Assembly (NCBI GenBank): GCA_964567515.1
Contig: CAZMMW010000002.1
Coordinates: 1-37,330, forward strand
Source: an uncultured Gammaproteobacteria bacterium
Lineage (GTDB): Bacteria; Patescibacteriota; Patescibacteriia; Veblenbacterales; UBA10138
Length of the DNA stretch: 37,330 nt
Direction: 5' to 3'
Shown: piece after piece, positions 26,804-37,219 of the stretch
Position numbering within the stretch: the stretch's first letter is position 1
Layout: every line of letters begins with the position of its first letter
Program-made: the position numbers and the translations under genes
Notes under the pieces: model-generated
Seen by the model: only the letters and a program-made list of their open reading frames with translations
What the model was told of the DNA's origin: nothing
Database searches by the model: none

Positions 26804-27055
26804 GTTCAGGATGACAGTCTCCTCCTGTCATCCTGAACATTCCCTTTTTGTCATCCTGAGCGCCAAGCGAAGGATCTCATGGACGATAGGGTTTTAACCA
26901 GGGGATGTTTCGCTAATACTCAACATGACAATGTTTCCTGTCATTCTGAGGCTTCAGCCGAAGAATCTAAGAGATGTTTTGTTAGCGCTTAACATGACAT
27001 ATAATAAAAAACTGATTCTGATGTTCTAGAATCGGCTTGAATTGATATAAGGTAC
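26804..27055. repeat. R1-L: array of a roughly 100-bp palindromic unit (tgtcatYctgag...ctcaacatgaca) plus a hairpin tail
   Basis: Near-identical to 36883-37219 apart from one extra unit there. Opens with a perfect 13-bp inverted repeat, gttcaggatgaca / tgtcatcctgaac (26804-26838). Confidence 0.85.
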
Positions 27056-28122: not shown

Positions 28123-28866
28123 GTGTCATTTTTCCAACAGCTCTCTGGCGCTCAACATGACGATTGCTATTGTCATGTTGAGTATTATGGTGTAATGCGT
28201 ATAATTGACCGCCTAGTTAATGAACATCCTGAACGTATAACTATACGTTTAACTGTAACTGCCTTCTCGCTTCCTTACTTGGAAGAAACCGCCGAATTTT
28301 TATGTAAACGTTACCCTGGTATCCCGCAACAATACGAGCCGGCTATGGATTCGTGTTTTGCTGCCCAAGGAATTGCTGATTTCTCTATGCGTCTATTTGT
28401 AGATCAACTAATCAAGGCTTATCAAATAGGGATGAAATATAGCACTCCGATTGGCAATTCCTTTGCAAGAATATCACGATTTAACAGCGACATCAATCGT
28501 TTTTGTGGAGTAAGTTCAATGAAATATACCATTCTTCCAGATGGCAATATAGCTAGTTGCAGCCGAGTACATACCTCCACCGTTCGTTCAACACCATTTT
28601 ATCTTGGTAATATCAATGAGGTTGTTAATAAAAAACGTCCCGTATTCAAATTGCCAACAGTATGTAATGATTGCTATGCAAGATTTGCCTGCAAAGGCGG
28701 TTGCTATGCGCTTCGATATTCCTTTGGTATAAATAAAAATGATGGATTTTCTTTTTGTCATGAGATACGCAGATTGCTTCGTGAAATACTTATTTTACAA
28801 ACAAATAGAAAGGTGGTGAAAAATAGTGGTTCAAACAAATCAAACACCAATACAAACCGAGGATGA
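28123..28866 (+). pseudogene. 5'-truncated radical SAM/SPASM maturase paralog (C-terminal half only)
   Basis: From about 28195 it aligns to residues from about 205 to the end of the 30106 protein (ITIRLTVT/LGIRCTIS; FCGV...P.G....C.RV). The SPASM domain is intact (C-x12-G-x4-C and CNDCYARFACKGGC). The CxxxCxxC core is missing. The apparent N-terminus is translated R1 repeat. Confidence 0.75.
28124..28190. repeat. R1 unit-junction remnant
   Basis: tgtcat...ctcaacatgac gattgctatt gtcatgttgag has perfect 11-bp arms at 28151-28161 and 28172-28182. It matches the R1 unit junction at 37088-37115. Confidence 0.75.
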
Positions 28867-29477: not shown

Positions 29478-29690
29478 GCGAACGAGTTTCACTATTCATT
29501 CTTCTAGCTTCTTGCTTCCTGATTCCAAATTCCAAAATTATTACTGAAAACCAATAACTAACTAGGAACTAAAAAGATTCCAACATTTACAACACTATAA
29601 CAAATTAAACTCAAAACTTAATTTTTCATTTTTAATTTTTAACTTTAAACTCTCATCACAGTTTTTGACAGTATAAACTGGTAATTACAC
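29478..29690. repeat. R2 copy 1
   Basis: gcgaacgagtttcactattcattcttc ... catttacaacactataacaaattaaactcaaaacttaatttttcatttttaatttttaactttaaactctcatcacagYttttgRcagtata. Shared with 36357-36647. The core is shared with 32419-32522. Confidence 0.85.
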
Positions 29691-29718
29691 CGACCACGCT
29701 TAAACTGTAATATTCAAA

Positions 29719-30105: not shown

Positions 30106-31368
30106 ATGCCACTACATCGCGTCTTTAAGATGTCTGTTCCACCAATGGGAACTATCGTATTTATGCCAGATGAAGAAAAACTCTTCCTAGTGGACGATGC
30201 CTCAACAATTCCTGACGAAATTATGAGTGAAACTCCGATTCCTTCTTTTACTCGTTTACCAGACTTCACTTATAGAGCAGCTCACTTGATCTTGAATAAC
30301 TTATGTAATCTGCAATGTACCTATTGTTATGCCAATGCCGGTGACTCGACTCCAATTGAAATGTCACCAATGGTAATGCGTGCCACCATAACCAAAATTG
30401 TATCTGACACTATTACCTTGGGACAATCAATATTCGAGCTTGGATTCATAGGGGGCGAGCCAACACTATCACTTGCGCTTATGAACGAAGGGGAACAGCT
30501 GGCGCGTCAATTGGCGGCTGAAGCTGGAATTAGAGCACGGGTCGGTATTGTAAGCAATGGTTACTATTCTGCTGATGTTGGTGATTATATTCTGAAGTAT
30601 CTTGACTATGCTACCATCTCTTTAGATGGTCCTCAAGAAATTCAAGATCATCAACGCCCGACACGAGGTGGGCGCGGATCCTTTGCTCAAGTCTATAACA
30701 ACGCCCAACGTCTATATGACGCGGGTTTCCCTCTTGGAATCCGTTGCACGATTTCTCGCGAAAGCGTTAATAGGCTTCCTCAAATAATTGAATTCCTGCA
30801 CAATTCGTTTCCTAAATCTGTAATCGGCTTAGAACCTCTGCAGGAATGTGGACGCTGTGCTCTTACTCACGCCTGCGGACCAAATCCAGAGGAATTGGTA
30901 GATCAAATGATTGAAGTGCTAAAGTTGGTATTATCGCGTCAAATCAAACTTAAATCTTCAATCTTGCGCTTTAAGATTCAAGGATCTGACATCAGTTTCT
31001 GTGGGGTGAATGGTCAAAATTTTGCTGTAACGCCACAAGGTTATGTAACCGCCTGCACTAGAGTAATTTCACACCAAGAACGCTCCGCTCAAATTTTTCA
31101 CTATGGATCTTATGACCACAACCTTAACCGTTTTGTCTTTGATACTGTAAGGTACGCCTGGCTGAAAAAGATAGTTGTTGACTCAATTGAACAGTGTGCC
31201 GATTGCTTCGCTCGATACAATTGTAAGGGAGATTGCGCGGCAATCAAAGCTGATGCCTATGGCGACGTTTTAATTACCCAACCCAGCCCTCGCTGTTCGT
31301 CAATCCGTCGATTAACAGAGGCTCTATTTCGACTACGTGTTGGATTAGAACCGGCAGCTAGCAAATAA
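30106..31368 (+). CDS. radical SAM/SPASM-domain peptide maturase
   Basis: AAGGAG SD. CNLQCTYCYA (CxxxCxxC) about 65 aa from the N-terminus, GGEP motif. SPASM: FCGVNGQNFAVTPQGYVTAC, CADCFARYNCKGDC and a downstream Cys. Confidence 0.9.
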   Translation: MPLHRVFKMSVPPMGTIVFMPDEEKLFLVDDASTIPDEIMSETPIPSFTRLPDFTYRAAHLILNNLCNLQCTYCYANAGDSTPIEMSPMVMRATITKIVSDTITLGQSIFELGFIGGEPTLSLALMNEGEQLARQLAAEAGIRARVGIVSNGYYSADVGDYILKYLDYATISLDGPQEIQDHQRPTRGGRGSFAQVYNNAQRLYDAGFPLGIRCTISRESVNRLPQIIEFLHNSFPKSVIGLEPLQECGRCALTHACGPNPEELVDQMIEVLKLVLSRQIKLKSSILRFKIQGSDISFCGVNGQNFAVTPQGYVTACTRVISHQERSAQIFHYGSYDHNLNRFVFDTVRYAWLKKIVVDSIEQCADCFARYNCKGDCAAIKADAYGDVLITQPSPRCSSIRRLTEALFRLRVGLEPAASK

Positions 31369-31471: not shown

Positions 31472-32356
31472 ATGACTATTATTCTAAAATCAAATAAGCA
31501 ACTCTTTGCTATGCATTTATTAATTGCGCTCTTGGAAAAAAGGGTAAATATATTTAATAATCGTAAATTAGAAAAACTCTTTAATTCTCTCTTGGTTGAT
31601 AAAAATTTTAAAAAATTAATCTCTAAGCTACGAGCTAATAATCTTAATTCTAACTCCTGCCGACGTTTTATAAATTTACTACTTCTACCACCTAATTCTC
31701 AATTTATTGATGAAGAATTATTAACACCATACCAAAACTTAAAACCTATATTAAACTCTTACATGAATTCTGACCCCATTGAAAAATTTTTTCAATTATA
31801 CTGCGAATATTTAACTAAATTTATTAAATATAAAAACCGCCTTTTTCAATCAGAAGCCCAACGTCTTCTGCGTTTCTTTCGCTTGCCTAGTTCTTGGTTT
31901 GGTATAATTTACGTTCATATTAATGCCCTTGATTCACTAGGGGTGGGGAATAATTACTTCCGTAAACATTCCTCTATAATCTCTGTGCCAACGCTGTCAG
32001 GGGGAACTATAAGTCTTTCAGGATTCCGCCATGAACTAATGCACATCATCCTGAAAAAATTATGGGTAAATAATCTGACTGCAACACATTTTCATCTGCA
32101 AGTTCCGAGCAACTACCAAACAGATAGTCTTCGGGTTCAATTTGATGAATATTTTATTGTAACAGCAAATATTTTCTTTCTCCCAGCCGATCGACAAAGT
32201 AAACAATTGGAATATTTAGCCAAACACGGTTTTTCTGATATTAATATCTTTTATAATTTCCTTAGATTAAATTTCCTAACCAGATCTAAAAAGCTAGAAG
32301 TAAAACTGTTAAAAGAGCTCCTAGATCTGCTTGAAAAACAGTTAAATAAATTATGA
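31472..32356 (+). CDS. hypothetical protein with HExxH motif (putative metallopeptidase)
   Basis: 294 aa, very AT-rich. Single HELMH motif (GFRHELMHIILKK). No third ligand identified. Confidence 0.4.
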   Translation: MTIILKSNKQLFAMHLLIALLEKRVNIFNNRKLEKLFNSLLVDKNFKKLISKLRANNLNSNSCRRFINLLLLPPNSQFIDEELLTPYQNLKPILNSYMNSDPIEKFFQLYCEYLTKFIKYKNRLFQSEAQRLLRFFRLPSSWFGIIYVHINALDSLGVGNNYFRKHSSIISVPTLSGGTISLSGFRHELMHIILKKLWVNNLTATHFHLQVPSNYQTDSLRVQFDEYFIVTANIFFLPADRQSKQLEYLAKHGFSDINIFYNFLRLNFLTRSKKLEVKLLKELLDLLEKQLNKL

Positions 32357-32418
32357 TTAGCAAATTAACCAAACAAAAGTTGCCCCAAACTGTTTCCTTC
32401 ATTCCCCTCGGGGACTAT
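32353..32418 (+). pseudogene. 5' remnant of a second transglutaminase-like gene
   Basis: The ATG overlaps the upstream stop (ATGA). MISKLTKQKLPQTVSFIP compares with MINRLTKKRLLKAISLIP at 29023. Homology ends where R2 copy 2 begins. Confidence 0.55.
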
Positions 32419-32522
32419 CATTTACAACACTATAACAAATTAAACTCAAAACTTAATTTTTCATTTTTAATTTTTAACTTTAAACTCTCATCACAGCTTT
32501 TGACAGTATAGACCAGTTACAC
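32419..32522. repeat. R2 copy 2 (core only)
   Basis: Near-identical to 29584-29690 and 36545-36647. Confidence 0.85.
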
Positions 32523-32528
32523 TATAAT
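32500..32528 (+). promoter_or_regulatory. consensus sigma70 promoter
   Basis: TTGACA (inside R2), exactly 17 nt, then TATAAT (just outside R2). Lies 110 nt upstream of the ATG at 32638. Confidence 0.6.
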
Positions 32529-32637: not shown

Positions 32638-33312
32638 ATGATAGCGGGAAATATAAAATTAAAGATGATAAGCTATGGTGTTCATTCGTCTATTAAGGGT
32701 AAATACTTTAAAGAATTTTCAAAGGCCGCTGATAAATTGATAAAATTCTTCCCGACTTCTCCATCTCTAGTTGAAATACACCTCTTTTCTAAACGAGGTG
32801 CTTTTGCTAAAAAAATTAAAAAGAAAAAAATTCCCAACTGGCTAATGGGGTATACACCAATAAGTAATCCTAACAAAATTTTTATTTATACCAAAGATTC
32901 TAGATTACTATCTAGTATTAGATTAAAAAAATTAGTACGACATGAATTAGCTCATGTTTTTACTAATCAGCTTAATCCTACTTTACCAACCTGGATAAAA
33001 GAAGGACTGGCGGTTTATTTAGCTAAACAGATTATCAAACCTTCTATTACCAAACGCGATTGGAAATTTATTAAACCGAATAAAAATTATAATTTTTTTG
33101 GCAGAAATTGGAACTCGCTGGTAAACAACCACCGAGCTTACAATAATTCCGGTTTGGTTGTTCAACAATTTATAAAAAGTTATGGACAAAAGAATTTTTT
33201 AAATGTATTAACCAAACATCAAACTAACCAAGATATAATCTTATCACTGGCTCTGTCTTTCAAAAAAACCAGTAAATCAATTATGGTGAATTTAGAAAAA
33301 CTATTATGCTAA
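32638..33312 (+). CDS. peptidase MA-like zinc metallopeptidase (HExxH...E)
   Basis: VRHELAHVFTNQLNPTLPTWIKEGLAVYLA follows the HExxH + W..EGlA gluzincin pattern. Confidence 0.6.
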   Translation: MIAGNIKLKMISYGVHSSIKGKYFKEFSKAADKLIKFFPTSPSLVEIHLFSKRGAFAKKIKKKKIPNWLMGYTPISNPNKIFIYTKDSRLLSSIRLKKLVRHELAHVFTNQLNPTLPTWIKEGLAVYLAKQIIKPSITKRDWKFIKPNKNYNFFGRNWNSLVNNHRAYNNSGLVVQQFIKSYGQKNFLNVLTKHQTNQDIILSLALSFKKTSKSIMVNLEKLLC

Positions 33313-33326
33313 GAGTAAAATAGATA

Positions 33327-34571
33327 ATGAATGATACTATTATGGTAAATCAAACGACTAAGAATCGAGTATGGATTTTTTATCTTAGTTCCTTTCTTAA
33401 TGCCCTATCAAGTGGTGTAGTAGGACCCTTGTTAATTGTGTATCTTCTTACTTTAAACCTTTCCACTGCCCAAGTTGGACTACTGCTAGCGATTGAACGC
33501 GGCGCTACCATAATAACTGAATTTCCTACTGGTGTTTTTGCTGACAAATATGGCCGACGTAAATCCCTTCTTATCTCCTTTGGTCTACTCGCCTTAATCC
33601 TTACTGCCTGGTTTTTTACTAAAAGCTACTTGGTTTTTATTATTCTTTCCTTTTGTTGGGGGCTAGCTTACACTTTCCAGAGTGGCGCTAAGGAATCTTT
33701 TGTGATTGACTCGCTTAATCTAGCCAACGATGATACTTCAAGAAATAAGGTATTCTCACGACTCGCTGCTGCTGGCAATTTTGGTTTAGTGATTGGTGGA
33801 TTAATAGCGGCCGGATTAACACTAGTTTCTCTACGTTCCATCTGGTTAGCGGCAGCGGTTGCTAACGGCTTCCTCTTCCTGCTCTTCCTGACAGCTACGC
33901 ACGAAATACCAAACAGCTCCGATACTAAAATTAATCGACAAGGAACGCTAAAAGGATTTATTTCATCATCACTTCAAAGTCTACGATCTATTTCTGCTTC
34001 ACGGACAATTTCTCGCCTCATGGGGATAACTATAATAGTTGGCCTAGTTATGGCAATCTATGGATTCTCTTACCCCATACTGTTTAAGACGCTTGGTTTG
34101 CCGCTCTACTACTTTGGCTTACTCGGTTCTGTGGCGGCAATCTTAGGAATTACTGGTGCTTTATTAGGAGAGAAAATAGTTAAACGTGCTGGATATCGCA
34201 CTTCACTCACCTACCTTACTTTTATTCTTATTATACTTTTTTCTATATTTGGCTTCACTGAAACTTTGGGAGTTACTATTCTACTTTTTGCTACAATTGA
34301 GTTAACGCTCCACGGTTGGTTTCCTATATATAATTCATTCCTAAATAAATTTATTCCAAATGGATTACGAAGTAGTCTATTATCAATAAATTCAACCTTA
34401 AGTTTGCTGGCTCTGGCTGGTGGCGAGCTTATGGCCGGCGCCTTAGTAATGATAGTCTCACCTGCTCAACTTATTGCCTGGGGAGGTATTCTACTTGTAA
34501 TCATCCTACTGCTACTTAGAAATATCAATCACTCTACAACAACGAATAATACACCAAAGGCAACGCGATGA
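33327..34571 (+). CDS. MFS transporter
   Basis: 414 aa with about 12 TM segments. MFS motif A: GVFADKYGRRKSLL. Confidence 0.85.
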   Translation: MNDTIMVNQTTKNRVWIFYLSSFLNALSSGVVGPLLIVYLLTLNLSTAQVGLLLAIERGATIITEFPTGVFADKYGRRKSLLISFGLLALILTAWFFTKSYLVFIILSFCWGLAYTFQSGAKESFVIDSLNLANDDTSRNKVFSRLAAAGNFGLVIGGLIAAGLTLVSLRSIWLAAAVANGFLFLLFLTATHEIPNSSDTKINRQGTLKGFISSSLQSLRSISASRTISRLMGITIIVGLVMAIYGFSYPILFKTLGLPLYYFGLLGSVAAILGITGALLGEKIVKRAGYRTSLTYLTFILIILFSIFGFTETLGVTILLFATIELTLHGWFPIYNSFLNKFIPNGLRSSLLSINSTLSLLALAGGELMAGALVMIVSPAQLIAWGGILLVIILLLLRNINHSTTTNNTPKATR

Positions 34572-34573
34572 AT

Positions 34574-34621
34574 AAAAAAGAGTCGTCTAAATAAGAAATA
34601 ATTTCCTATAATAAACGACTC
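34574..34621 (-). terminator. possible terminator for the minus-strand rSAM-P3 operon
   Basis: On the minus strand: gagtcgt ...28 nt... acgactc followed by ttttttatt. The long loop makes this weak. Confidence 0.35.
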
Positions 34622-34634
34622 GTGACGGTTGCTG

Positions 34635-34745
34635 TTAACAACACCCGCCTGCGCGACACATCGGATTCATATTGAGTTTACCAAGAATCCGCGCTGGCCT
34701 ACGAAGCGGCTTTGCTTTAAGACCAGTAATCGCTTGTTTTTTCAT
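34635..34745 (-). CDS. putative Cys-rich precursor peptide P3 (36 aa)
   Basis: The ATG directly abuts the rSAM TAG (TAGATG). GGAGGTGG SD lies 8 nt upstream. Translation: MKKQAITGLKAKPLRRPARILGKLNMNPMCRAGGCC. Confidence 0.7.
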   Translation of the reverse strand: MKKQAITGLKAKPLRRPARILGKLNMNPMCRAGGCC

Positions 34746-36107
34746 CTATACCACCTCCTTTCGAGCGTCTTTCTGTTTTATAGTGCCATTCTCAGTCATA
34801 ACTTCTAAAAGCAGAGAATGTGTTACTTTTTTAAAAACCTCACATCGATACCAAAACGCTTCTAGTGAGTTGGTATATTTACCATATTCTGAAGTTATGT
34901 AACATCCACCCATACACTGCCCTTCAATTTCGCAACCTTTACACGCTTTGATGTTTCCTATAACCCGCGAGGTGATAAGAGAACGGAAACTATCAGATTG
35001 AAAAATATCGTCTAACCCTTCTACCGTTCCTAATTCAGTACGACTATAGGAGCAAGGTAAAACAATCCCTGAGGGAGAAACAGATATTCCCATTCCAGTA
35101 AAAGCCGAGCAATTAAAGAGTTTATTCTTGAGTCGAGATTCAAACATATTTTTGAATGGTTTATCCCACAAACCACCAACTGTGATATTTCTTTTTTCTC
35201 CTAGTTTCTTAAACCACAACAACATATCAACTAGCTCATCGGGATCCTTTTGAAGAGAATTAATCATGTCAGGTTCAAAAGAACATGAGGTAATACCACG
35301 ATCGGCTAAAAAATCAAAGAAATTTTCTTTAATTCTATCAATATTCTGATCTGTGAGTGTTAAACAAAACCATTCAACTTTCTTACCTTCTTTATCCAGA
35401 TTATCCCATCCTGAGATAATACGCCGAAAAGTACCGTTGCCAGAAACTAATCGACGAATTTGGTCGTTTACCTCTAATGGCCCATCTAAACTCGTAGTAA
35501 CTGTAACATTATTTTGCGCTAAGTAACCTGCTCGTGTTGGCGTTATTAAAGACGCATTACTATTGGTAGAAAATGCAAATTCATAACTATTACCATACCT
35601 ACCAACAGAATAATCTATCACTTTTTGCATCAAATTCCACGCTAGTAACGGCTCACTGCCGCCAAAATAAATCTCAACTTTATTCCTTTGTCTCCTCTTA
35701 ATAAAATTCATAAACCTATCAATTGCATTTTTGGCAATAGACCAAGTCATCCGACGCACTTTTGACAACTTCTTGTTAGAAGCCTCTATAACCTTCCGTG
35801 CTAAACAATATGAACAATTGAAGTTACAACGCTCATCTAAAATTAACCCTAGAGAAGACAGGTGTTGCCCCCTACAAATTCTATCAATATACTTCTTTAT
35901 CGTCCGATGTAAATGTATTCTTTCATCTTGCCACTCGGGAATTAAAAAATGGTGTTTAATAAATAAATGAAGCCACTGCTCTAAATTCTCAATGGTATAT
36001 TGAGCTTGTATGTCTTGTAAACTGCAGGGGCGGCGAAAAAGATTGAGAACAAAAATACACTGTTCGTTTAGAATTATAGGGTGCCCAAAGAGAGAATTAT
36101 AAACCAA
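34746..36107 (-). CDS. radical SAM/SPASM-domain peptide maturase
   Basis: CNFNCSYCLA about 95 aa from the N-terminus. SPASM: FNCSAFTGMGISVSPSGIVLPC and CKGCEIEGQCMGGC. The track start is a TTG. The frame stays open to 36200 with family-like sequence (HLIIKKYQDGTLVYNSL) but no ATG/GTG, so the start is uncertain. Confidence 0.88.
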   Translation of the reverse strand: MVYNSLFGHPIILNEQCIFVLNLFRRPCSLQDIQAQYTIENLEQWLHLFIKHHFLIPEWQDERIHLHRTIKKYIDRICRGQHLSSLGLILDERCNFNCSYCLARKVIEASNKKLSKVRRMTWSIAKNAIDRFMNFIKRRQRNKVEIYFGGSEPLLAWNLMQKVIDYSVGRYGNSYEFAFSTNSNASLITPTRAGYLAQNNVTVTTSLDGPLEVNDQIRRLVSGNGTFRRIISGWDNLDKEGKKVEWFCLTLTDQNIDRIKENFFDFLADRGITSCSFEPDMINSLQKDPDELVDMLLWFKKLGEKRNITVGGLWDKPFKNMFESRLKNKLFNCSAFTGMGISVSPSGIVLPCSYSRTELGTVEGLDDIFQSDSFRSLITSRVIGNIKACKGCEIEGQCMGGCYITSEYGKYTNSLEAFWYRCEVFKKVTHSLLLEVMTENGTIKQKDARKEVV

Positions 36108-36277
36108 AGTCCCATCTTGATATTTCTTAATAATTAGATGGGGAGACTGAATGAATCTATTTCTATTATTGTCAATTATAGTTAACCTCTTTTTTTGTTC
36201 TTAGTCGTTTCTACTCACTCCAATAGCAATTAAACGAGATAGAATATTTTTAAAGTACTGTTTGGAGTATTCTATTT

Positions 36278-36317
36278 TAATATCAAATACACCATATTAA
36301 TATCAAATACACCATAT
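36278..36317. repeat. perfect 2 x 20-bp tandem direct repeat
   Basis: taatatcaaatacaccatat occurs twice. On the minus strand it yields TTGATA-17/18-ATATTA/TATTAA, a possible promoter or operator for the rSAM-P3 operon. Confidence 0.8.
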
Positions 36318-36334
36318 TGTTAAATGGCGATTTA

Positions 36335-36363: not shown

Positions 36364-36647
36364 AGTTTCACTATTCATTCTTCTTTCTTTTACCTTCCAG
36401 CTTCTAGCCACCATGGACAGATTAGTTTTAAAAATTTCAACTACAACATTTACAACATTACAACAAATAAAACAGCTTCTAGTTTCCAAATTCCAAAATT
36501 ATTACTGAAAACCAATAACTAACTAGGAACTAAAAAGATTCCAACATTTACAACACTATAACAAATTAAACTCAAAACTTAATTTTTCATTTTTAATTTT
36601 TAACTTTAAACTCTCATCACAGCTTTTGGCAGTATAAGCCAGTTACT
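36357..36647. repeat. R2 copy 3 (longest, with about 95 bp of internal extra sequence)
   Basis: Collinear with copy 1 at both ends. Internal partial duplication: caacatttacaacattacaacaaataaaac versus caacatttacaacactataacaaattaaac. Confidence 0.85.
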
Positions 36648-36882
36648 CTACCAAGATCAGGATCTATATAAACTCCAACCACAAACTCGCCATTAGGACA
36701 AGAGGATGCACCTTGCTCAAAACTATTAATCCGGAACTAAAAGATTTATCTGATGATATTACTTAGATGCTGAAATACCTGTCCGCCGTCCGCCTTCCTG
36801 ATGAGTGTACCTAAACCACCAATTCGTTGATGGGTTGATAACAAACGGAGGCAGCTTTGGATTTAGACTTTGGCAGACGGGA

Positions 36883-37219
36883 GTTCAGCCTGACGGTTGT
36901 TATTGTCATCCTGAACATTACCTTTCTGTCATCCTGAGCGCCAAGCGAAGAATCTCATGGACGATAGGGTTTAACAATGGGATGTTTCGCTAATACTCAA
37001 CATGACAATGTTTCCTGTCATTCTGAGGCTTCAGCCGAAGAATCTCATGGACAACAGGGTTTTAACCAGGGGATGTTTCGCTAATACTCAACATGACGAT
37101 TGTCGTTGTCATTCTGAGGCTTCAGCCGAAGAATCTAAGAGATGTTTTGTTAGCGCTTAACATGACATATAATAAAAAGCCGATTCTGTTTAGAATCGGC
37201 TTGAATTAATATAAGGTAC
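36883..37219. repeat. R1-R: array of the roughly 100-bp palindromic unit, one unit longer than R1-L
   Basis: Direct repeat of 26804-27055. Both copies end in gaatcggcttgaatt(g/a)atataaggtac. Confidence 0.85.
37171..37202 (-). terminator. rho-independent terminator for the right-edge minus-strand gene
   Basis: aagccgattct gttt agaatcggctt has an 11-bp stem. On the minus strand it is followed by tttttatt. A degraded copy lies at about 27010-27038. Confidence 0.6.

Follow-up and report, generated by a model that had tools for sequence, protein, structure and literature searches.

An N-terminal RiPP recognition element (RRE; RiPP, a peptide made on the ribosome and modified after translation) is a hallmark of leader-peptide recognition. 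Among the radical S-adenosylmethionine (rSAM) maturases, PapB, QhpD, RumMC and the SCIFF maturase are thioether formers, and in CteB-type enzymes the open iron of auxiliary cluster I (Aux I) binds the substrate thiolate. Precursors of the PapB family carry motifs of the Cys-x3-Asp/Glu type. The enzyme TigE converts the Ile of TIGSVS repeats to methyl-cyclopropylglycine and has an RRE that comprises residues 3-85 according to its depositors; in the cyclopropyl synthases (TvgB/TigE) a GYW motif is strictly conserved, its Tyr ligates Aux I and is essential, and even the Y339F variant is inactive (PMC10878394). NxxcB, in turn, links the Cys sulfur to the Asn C-beta within an N-x-x-C motif, via a thiolate bound to an auxiliary cluster (PMC9389541). 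Here we compare with these systems the 36-residue peptide gene P3 and the rSAM gene preceding it, which lie in a 37,330-nucleotide stretch of DNA (the window from here on; contig CAZMMW010000002.1, positions 1 to 37,330 of the forward strand, assembly GCA_964567515.1), deposited as an uncultured Gammaproteobacteria bacterium and placed by GTDB in the Patescibacteriota.

We consider it probable (roughly 70%) that P3 is a RiPP precursor and the upstream gene its maturase, the product probably being thioether cross-linked and exported. The features of the peptide gene are as follows.

34745..34635, minus strand: putative precursor peptide gene P3, 36 aa, with a basic leader MKKQAITGLKAKPLRRPARILGKL followed by the core NMNPMCRAGGCC
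34758..34751, minus strand: Shine-Dalgarno sequence of P3, GGAGGTGG, within the last codons of the rSAM gene
34638..34667, minus strand: core N-P-M-C-R-A-G-G-C-C of P3, with the family invariant N-x-x-C-x-x-G-G-C-C taken from the peptide alignment
34574..34621, minus strand: intrinsic terminator directly after the P3 stop, an 18-pair interrupted hairpin followed by U6

The first-pass annotation of this DNA had described the peptide, a TAGATG junction with the rSAM gene and the embedded Shine-Dalgarno sequence, and all three were borne out by a reverse-complement read and the list of open reading frames (ORFs). The translation is exactly MKKQAITGLKAKPLRRPARILGKLNMNPMCRAGGCC and its stop is the TAA at 34637..34635 (minus strand), while at the junction the rSAM stop TAG (34748..34746) abuts the P3 ATG (34745..34743), with both genes in the same frame. 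The coding pattern of GGCC plus stop, GGNGGNTGYTGYTRR, is found a single time in the window, where 0.01 occurrences would be expected. As the terminator (fold of -18.7 kcal/mol, z = -4.4) directly follows the P3 stop, the rSAM gene and P3 constitute a two-gene unit, and similar hairpins are also found 3' of the peptide gene in four orthologous loci (L081, L086, L091 and L113). The translational coupling that had been proposed together with the junction stands for the window and a few other loci but not as a trait of the family: most of the orthologous peptide genes are separated from the rSAM gene by a spacer of 30-45 nt and have a GGAGG of their own. The in-frame TAGATG abutment is thus probably incidental, and what is conserved across loci is the co-transcription of enzyme and peptide, not stop-start coupling as such. 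Read-through of one stop (34743-34748, minus strand) would fuse the enzyme to P3.

Ortholog loci were gathered from genome and metagenome contigs and by exact-protein look-up. Only about 28 relatives of the rSAM enzyme with at least 44% identity occur among 5.8 billion proteins, and in every ortholog locus whose contig extends beyond the rSAM gene, a micro-ORF of 35-40 codons lies 3' of that gene, its start preceded by an (A)AGGAGG Shine-Dalgarno sequence. Orthologs lacking a downstream Cys-terminal micro-ORF, which the first-pass annotation had held to speak against the pairing, were sought and none was found among the loci with downstream sequence, since all of these carry the peptide. The motif N-x-x-C-x-x-G-G-C-C is C-terminal in 16/16 of the distinct GGCC-type peptides recovered, most commonly in the form NMNPxC[RT][AS]GGCC. 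The N-x-x-C part is present in all 16 as NPMC, NPLC, NPQC, NPNC, NPAC or the variants NRFC (L115) and NSQC (L121), and the sole invariant side chains of the core are Asn and Cys. The leaders are rich in Lys and Arg and are of two subtypes, ...I-x-G-L-x-A-K-x-x-x-R-P-x-R-I-L-G... and ...S-V-K-x-L-x-G-P-K-R-S-K-K...

Compared with the window copy, the ortholog peptides differ at a proportion of 0.72-0.92 of synonymous sites (pS) and 0.22-0.30 of nonsynonymous sites (pN), and the core codons of NMNPxC..GGCC vary at wobble positions only. The G+C content of the GGCC-type loci ranges from 35% to 62% (69% for L117, a core variant), so it is the protein that is conserved, not the DNA. Also, in a neighbor-joining tree of the enzymes the core and leader types track the enzyme clades (GGCC, AP[NS]CFxGxC and, in a sister group, NTCxxPSNCHKS). 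The subclade of L090 and L117 carries ...AAAP[NS]CF[VT]G[AS]C in place of the GGCC core, and L117 (1-6770) has two tandem peptide genes, MKKSISVRKLRAPRKSKTAAA[AG]PSCFTG[SA]C. P3 is a real coding gene, co-inherited and co-evolving with the rSAM enzyme.

Gene callers almost never annotate peptides of the P3 type. P3 gave no match in Pfam or NCBIfam even at E<=10, and a profile of the peptides recovered only 3 relatives from the 5.8 billion proteins, each unnamed or called 'hypothetical protein'. One database relative of the enzyme, P0006 (538 aa), has a C-terminal tail ...GQHEPPVPRRRLLLGNGR that corresponds to a +1-frame reading of the peptide gene (compare GQHEPAVPVRRLLL, the alternative frame of L086); this long form is either a read-through or frameshift artefact, or else represents overlapping genes. 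In L002 (8001-9424), from a metagenome-assembled genome (MAG) binned as Acidobacteriota, the rSAM gene is split by a frameshift that is likely a sequencing error rather than the mark of a pseudogene, the gene being intact in the near-identical metagenome contig L083.

The maturase gene and its domains are located as follows.

34746..36179, minus strand: RRE-radical SAM-SPASM maturase, 477 aa if it starts at the ATA at 36179; the mechanical TTG-start ORF runs from 36107
35925..36179, minus strand: N-terminal RRE, a winged helix of approximately residues 1-85, from model and profile
35805..35828, minus strand: radical-SAM cluster motif C118-x3-C122-x2-C125 (CNFNCSYC), invariant in the family alignment (A1)
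35166..35174, minus strand: G-L-W, aligned to the GYW of the cyclopropyl synthases; the Tyr ligand of Aux I is absent
34842..35111, minus strand: SPASM domain with seven Cys (C357, C376, C413, C416, C422, C426 and C446), from the same alignment and PF13186

The enzyme matches the Pfam families Radical_SAM (PF04055, E 2e-14) and SPASM (PF13186), and holds ...ACKGCEIEGQCMGGCY... as well as CKGCEIEGQCMGGC. Its homologs begin about 24 residues before the TTG at 36107, and in the window the corresponding stretch reads IIDNNRNRFIQSPHLIIKKYQDGT; going upstream from that TTG, no ATG, GTG or TTG occurs in frame before the stop TAA at 36203..36201 is reached. Because both the homologs and the RRE fold need this stretch, the start codon is probably the ATA or ATT at 36179/36176, behind AAGAGG. 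The automatic call (P0001, 453 aa) cuts off two strands of the RRE.

An AlphaFold2 model of the maturase (pLDDT 89.8, pTM 0.87) shows a beta3-alpha3 winged-helix topology over residues 9-81 with pLDDT above 90, in which DSSP assigned strands 9-11, 15-20, 23-28 and 32-37 and helices 39-46, 54-60 and 66-75. A search of the PDB with the single N-terminal domain sequence gave no match and a profile of 15 sequences was needed; over 100 N-terminal residues this profile had one significant match, TigE (8VPO) residues 3-101, with E 2e-5. The N-terminus, which had been singled out earlier as the place to look for an RRE, was accordingly positive by profile and by model. Over the whole protein, the profile (hmmsearch) aligned with TigE at E 2.8e-59 over residues 6-459, with CteB (7e-35) and anSME far behind, and Foldseek likewise placed TigE on top (E 1.8e-27, TM score 0.75) and CteB second.

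The C-terminal domain has the SPASM pattern C-x13-G-x4-C ... C-x2-C-x5-C-x3-C ... C, and its seven Cys and G371 are invariant or nearly so in the family. The middle residue of the G-x-W motif is Leu or Met in all members of the group to which the window enzyme belongs (group A) and Phe, Leu or Cys in the sister group (G[F/L/C]W). The seven auxiliary Cys, together with Leu or Met at the position of the TigE Tyr, would leave one open site at Aux I. By the criteria that define the cyclopropyl synthases, the maturase is related to them but stands outside their family. It also scores under the cutoff of every curated NCBIfam family, the best match being PapB (128 bits against a cutoff of 340, NF047865), followed here by QhpD (TIGR03906, 111 against 453), RumMC (NF035951, 100 against 720) and the SCIFF maturase (TIGR03974, 94 against 425). 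Three rSAM relatives are likewise below the cutoffs, with 116-135 bits for PapB.

A third gene, which the first-pass annotation had not included in the cassette, faces the two-gene unit.

33327..34571, plus strand: convergent efflux-type transporter of the major facilitator superfamily (MFS), 414 aa, Pfam MFS_1 at E 8e-32

A convergent MFS gene follows the peptide gene in 13/15 distinct loci with enough downstream sequence, L117 and L002 being the exceptions, and the orthologous transporters are 39-45% identical to that of the window (L081, L082, L084, L087, L091, L102, L113/114, L115/116 and L119-L122). The MFS gene is the conserved third gene of the cassette, with a probable function in export or immunity.

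We infer for the pair a leader-RRE interaction, thioether chemistry, an export role for the transporter and a biological role for the product, along the following lines. The rSAM gene and P3 would be co-transcribed in a message ending at the terminator. The RRE of the maturase would bind the Lys/Arg-rich leader (consensus I-x-G-L-x-A-K-x-x-x-R-P-x-R-I-L-G), and binding would put the core N-x-x-C-x-x-G-G-C-C into the radical-SAM active site, where most probably at least one intramolecular thioether would be formed from a core Cys. Reductive cleavage of SAM would generate a 5'-deoxyadenosyl radical that takes a hydrogen from a carbon of the acceptor residue, and a Cys thiolate on the open Aux-I iron would then capture the carbon radical. 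The best candidate for the acceptor is the Asn that invariably stands three positions ahead of the first Cys, which would result in an Asn C-beta to Cys S bridge such as that of NxxcB. Finally, the convergent MFS transporter may export the product or protect the producer.

That P3 is the substrate of the adjacent rSAM enzyme appears highly probable. The formation of a thioether specifically is a tentative proposal, with odds that we place slightly short of even, and is put forward because Asn and Cys are the only invariant core side chains, one Aux-I site is predicted to be open, the best-scoring curated families are thioether formers and the N-x-x-C motif is that of the NxxcB substrate. Several observations weigh against the cross-linked and exported product. 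TigE, the closest characterized enzyme, makes a C-C bond and not a thioether; Asn at i-3 cannot be a universal acceptor, as the sister-group peptides have no N-x-x-C; and no leader protease is conserved across the cassette loci. Nor is the argument from a missing Tyr to ligation by Cys clean, since a relative that retains GYW (P0070, L123) is accompanied by a peptide ending in CSGC. Loss of the GYW Tyr was considered as a marker of clades with Cys substrates and was rejected on account of this peptide and of the variation of the middle residue of G-x-W from clade to clade (M, F, Y, T, L, S, Q and others); what was retained is the more modest point that, with seven auxiliary Cys, a single site stays open.

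An alternative is that P3 is indeed the substrate but undergoes TigE-like C-C or other radical chemistry (e.g. epimerization) on N-M-N-P, the GGCC thiols remaining free, forming a disulfide or binding a metal such as Cu(I). It would agree with TigE being by far the best match in both structure and sequence, with the basic leader and C-terminal Cys pair of the peptide that accompanies the GYW-type enzyme of L123, and with the presence near the cassettes of MFS_3/EntS-like transporters, a type that typically exports metallophores. In L117, moreover, the rSAM gene and both peptide copies come directly after copper genes (CsoR, a CopA-type ATPase and an HMA-DsbD-cupredoxin protein), a possible hint, from one locus, of a copper link for Cys-tailed peptides. 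However, L117 is the only locus with this context and belongs to a divergent subclade, with no MFS gene in its cassette. The Tyr that is essential in TigE (PMC10878394) is absent from all group-A and sister enzymes, and in the peptide alignment the core of the P3 family contains no repeats and no conserved Val or Ile, its invariant side chains being Asn and Cys only. On balance we regard this alternative as unlikely.

Two further explanations dispense with P3 as a substrate. The micro-ORF could encode a real small protein, such as a regulatory or ribosome- or nucleic-acid-binding peptide, while the rSAM enzyme acts on another protein in the manner of anSME or QhpD. The strongly basic nature of P3 and the want of a conserved protease would suit such a role, as would the RimJ/RimL-like GNAT genes (Acetyltransf_3) that recur beside the sister cassettes and in L121. 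Yet the maturase has an RRE, the core and leader types of the peptide co-vary with the enzyme clade, conservation peaks in the Cys core and not in the basic part, and the neighborhood has no other conserved gene for a candidate substrate, all of which makes this explanation distinctly improbable. As for a chance frame in a 3' untranslated or terminator region, P3 has only 36 codons, is seldom called and has just 3 relatives on record, but this account is refuted by the conservation data: the amino acids are kept across loci of 35%-62% G+C (and 69% for the L117 variant), synonymous sites are near saturation (pS up to 0.92) and a strong Shine-Dalgarno sequence precedes the peptide in every locus.

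The enzyme belongs to a much larger assemblage. In a profile search of 1.84 billion representatives, group A made up two clusters at 50% identity (777 and 579 bits), while at least 150 further such clusters scored above the level of TigE and 440 proteins had E <= 1e-30; group A is a small twig of a large, mostly uncharacterized TigE-like superfamily. Six members (P0056, P0058, P0065, P0071, P0072 and P0078) are 1,100-1,160 aa long with the TigE-like module at the C-terminus, from about residue 640-720 onward, and are uncharacterized fusions. The GYW-bearing P0070 is preceded in L123 (298-1980) by its basic peptide, which ends in ...SLQNSLGITWCSGC (...LGITWCSGC), so that basic-leader, Cys-tailed peptides are not confined to the Tyr-less clades.

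Sister cassettes, with rSAM enzymes 31-35% identical to that of the window, share with it the order of rSAM then peptide, a basic K-R-P leader, a C-terminal pair of Cys 4-6 residues apart and a G-[F/L/C]-W enzyme. Their peptides differ in the core motif (...KALPKRPxFNTCQxPSNCHKS or ...MTCKKSSNCH), which has no GGCC. Peptides of this kind include MKKLVIVVLPKRPIFNTCQQPSNCHKS and MKTRKMPPVVHQMTCKKSSNCH, and the loci are L092, L095-L098, L100, L101, L106 and L108-L111; in 8 loci a GNAT gene (Acetyltransf_3) follows the sister peptide in place of the convergent MFS gene.

Other neighbors of the group-A cassettes recur without being universal. A HisKA_7TM histidine kinase is encoded upstream in two loci, L081 and L115, in the latter immediately upstream, and a GNAT gene lies beside the MFS gene in L121. 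In the window, the plus strand carries two genes for HExxH proteins (31472-32356 and 32638-33312), the second of which has a weak match to Peptidase_MA_2 and stops 14 nt short of the MFS gene, with which it probably shares a transcript. Both proteins are candidate leader peptidases for this island; as a conserved leader peptidase they were rejected, since nothing equivalent occurs at the other loci. A 20-bp sequence, TTAATATCAAATACACCATA, is perfectly repeated in tandem (2.1 copies, 36277..36318) at about 100 nt from the rSAM start on its upstream side; it overlaps promoter-like hexamers and is a candidate operator or promoter element that may belong to the cassette.

A second complete rSAM gene lies at 30106-31368. 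Its product is 22% identical to the maturase of P3 and has a shorter N-terminal extension. The peptides differ as well: the candidate for the enzyme at 30106 is acidic and encoded upstream of it, P3 basic and encoded downstream of its own enzyme. The proposals that the two enzymes are distinct, with the longer extension on the P3 side, and that the island holds two different peptide/maturase pairs and not a duplicated one were thereby upheld. A third ORF (28123-28866, plus strand) corresponds to the SPASM-only C-terminal half of an rSAM protein, 27% identical to the enzyme at 30106 and with no CxxxCxxC region; its 5' end falls within a palindromic repeat (28151-28182) and it is probably a truncated rSAM remnant. 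All three rSAM-related genes are contained in a block of about 10 kb flanked by direct repeats (26826-27055 and 36904-37219) of 93-97% identity, which hold short palindromes (CTCAACATGAC...GTCAT..TGAG) and of which the right one includes a 91-nt tandem duplication (36946-37136). The block may have been inserted as an island or may be the scar of recombination. Within the island there are also three copies of a 178-nt intergenic element (29514-29691, 32349-32526 and 36475-36652; 68-93% identity), each with (TTAATTT)x4. Plus-strand operons are preceded by two of them, one upstream of the peptide P2 and its rSAM gene and the other upstream of an HExxH protein and the MFS transporter, and the element, for which no Rfam match was found, may be a shared promoter or regulatory cassette. 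Scans of the window for tRNAs and Rfam families found nothing.

Named carriers of group A are Kuenenbacteria, Patescibacteria and Saccharibacteria MAGs, together with one contig binned as Acidobacteriota and some high-GC contigs. The proteins nearest to the LigA of the window, at 69-80% identity, come from 'Patescibacteria group bacterium' MAGs, with those of Kerfeldbacteria and Komeilibacteria next, and the window also encodes type IV pilus genes, gatA and ligA. No match of the maturase at E<=1e-20 was found in plasmids and phages, and in viral contigs none exceeded 33% identity, or 27% over more than 150 residues; judging from these searches the cassette is not evidently mobile on such elements. 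In the open-access literature we found no paper describing the family of P3 and its maturase, and nothing specific on it in the candidate phyla radiation (CPR).

Very little secondary metabolism is encoded in the tiny genomes of the Patescibacteria (CPR). That they keep maturase, peptide and exporter as a compact cassette under purifying selection suggests that a secreted modified peptide matters to their lifestyle. This cassette is effectively invisible in annotation, because the precursor is missed by gene callers and the maturase of the window is mis-started. Also, a family that stands beside the cyclopropyl synthases and does without their essential Tyr, while presumably acting on a Cys/Asn core, offers a natural test case of how a single scaffold can change between making C-C and (probably) C-S bonds. 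The wider TigE-like superfamily, with its at least 150 clusters, is for the most part unexplored and seems to rely on similar peptides, short, basic and Cys-tailed. Group A and the surrounding Tyr-less G-x-W clades might even install an undescribed cross-link pattern, such as an Asn-Cys beta-thioether plus a vicinal Cys-Cys modification, on a full-length basic peptide whose leader is never cleaved; Patescibacteria would export this small, cationic, cross-linked peptide either to act on their host bacteria, as effector or signal, or to bind copper through its thiols. We hold this to be unlikely; if true, it would be one of very few dedicated secondary-metabolite systems in these reduced genomes.

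Compared with the known systems, the cassette is most likely an undescribed family within the rSAM/SPASM RiPP cassettes, occurring mainly in Patescibacteria, and is set apart by a downstream precursor, a basic leader, an NxxC..GGCC core, no dedicated protease, a convergent MFS gene and a Tyr-less TigE-like enzyme. With TigE the maturase shares the RRE/radical-SAM/SPASM architecture, an alignment over the full length and the G-x-W motif, but the two are only about 24% identical and the Tyr of GYW is replaced by Leu in the window and by Leu or Met in group A. The precursors of TigE type have repeated TVGG or TIGSVS motifs with a conserved Val or Ile, whereas P3 has one unrepeated C-terminal Asn/Cys core; also, in the order tigA, tigB (the precursor), tigC, tigD, tigE, tigF the precursor gene comes before tigE, whereas P3 is downstream of its enzyme.

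The ranthipeptide and sactipeptide systems (PapB, CteB/SCIFF, RumMC) have in common with the locus the RRE-rSAM-SPASM enzyme, the seven auxiliary Cys, a Cys-containing core and often just two genes. They differ in that the window enzyme scores far under their cutoffs, in their acidic or hydrophobic leaders as opposed to the basic one of P3, and in the downstream position of P3. P3, with three Cys, does not have the six-Cys pattern of SCIFF, nor does it have Cx3D/E motifs, the core NMNPxC[RT][AS]GGCC containing no acidic residue; and no qhp genes are present in the window neighborhood by the ORF list and Pfam. The likeness to NxxcA/NxxcB of streptococci (PMC9389541) lies in the precursor motif and the locus: in both cases an N-x-x-C lies near the end of the precursor and an rSAM gene whose product has auxiliary clusters is adjacent, and the mechanism proposed for NxxcB, with an auxiliary-cluster thiolate and hydrogen abstraction at the Asn C-beta, would fit the open Aux-I site predicted for the maturase of P3. 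Unlike the NxxC RaS-RiPPs, however, the P3 cassettes are found in Patescibacteria hosts, have a basic leader and no shp/rgg quorum-sensing context, and encode two additional vicinal Cys (GGCC) that have no counterpart in those peptides.

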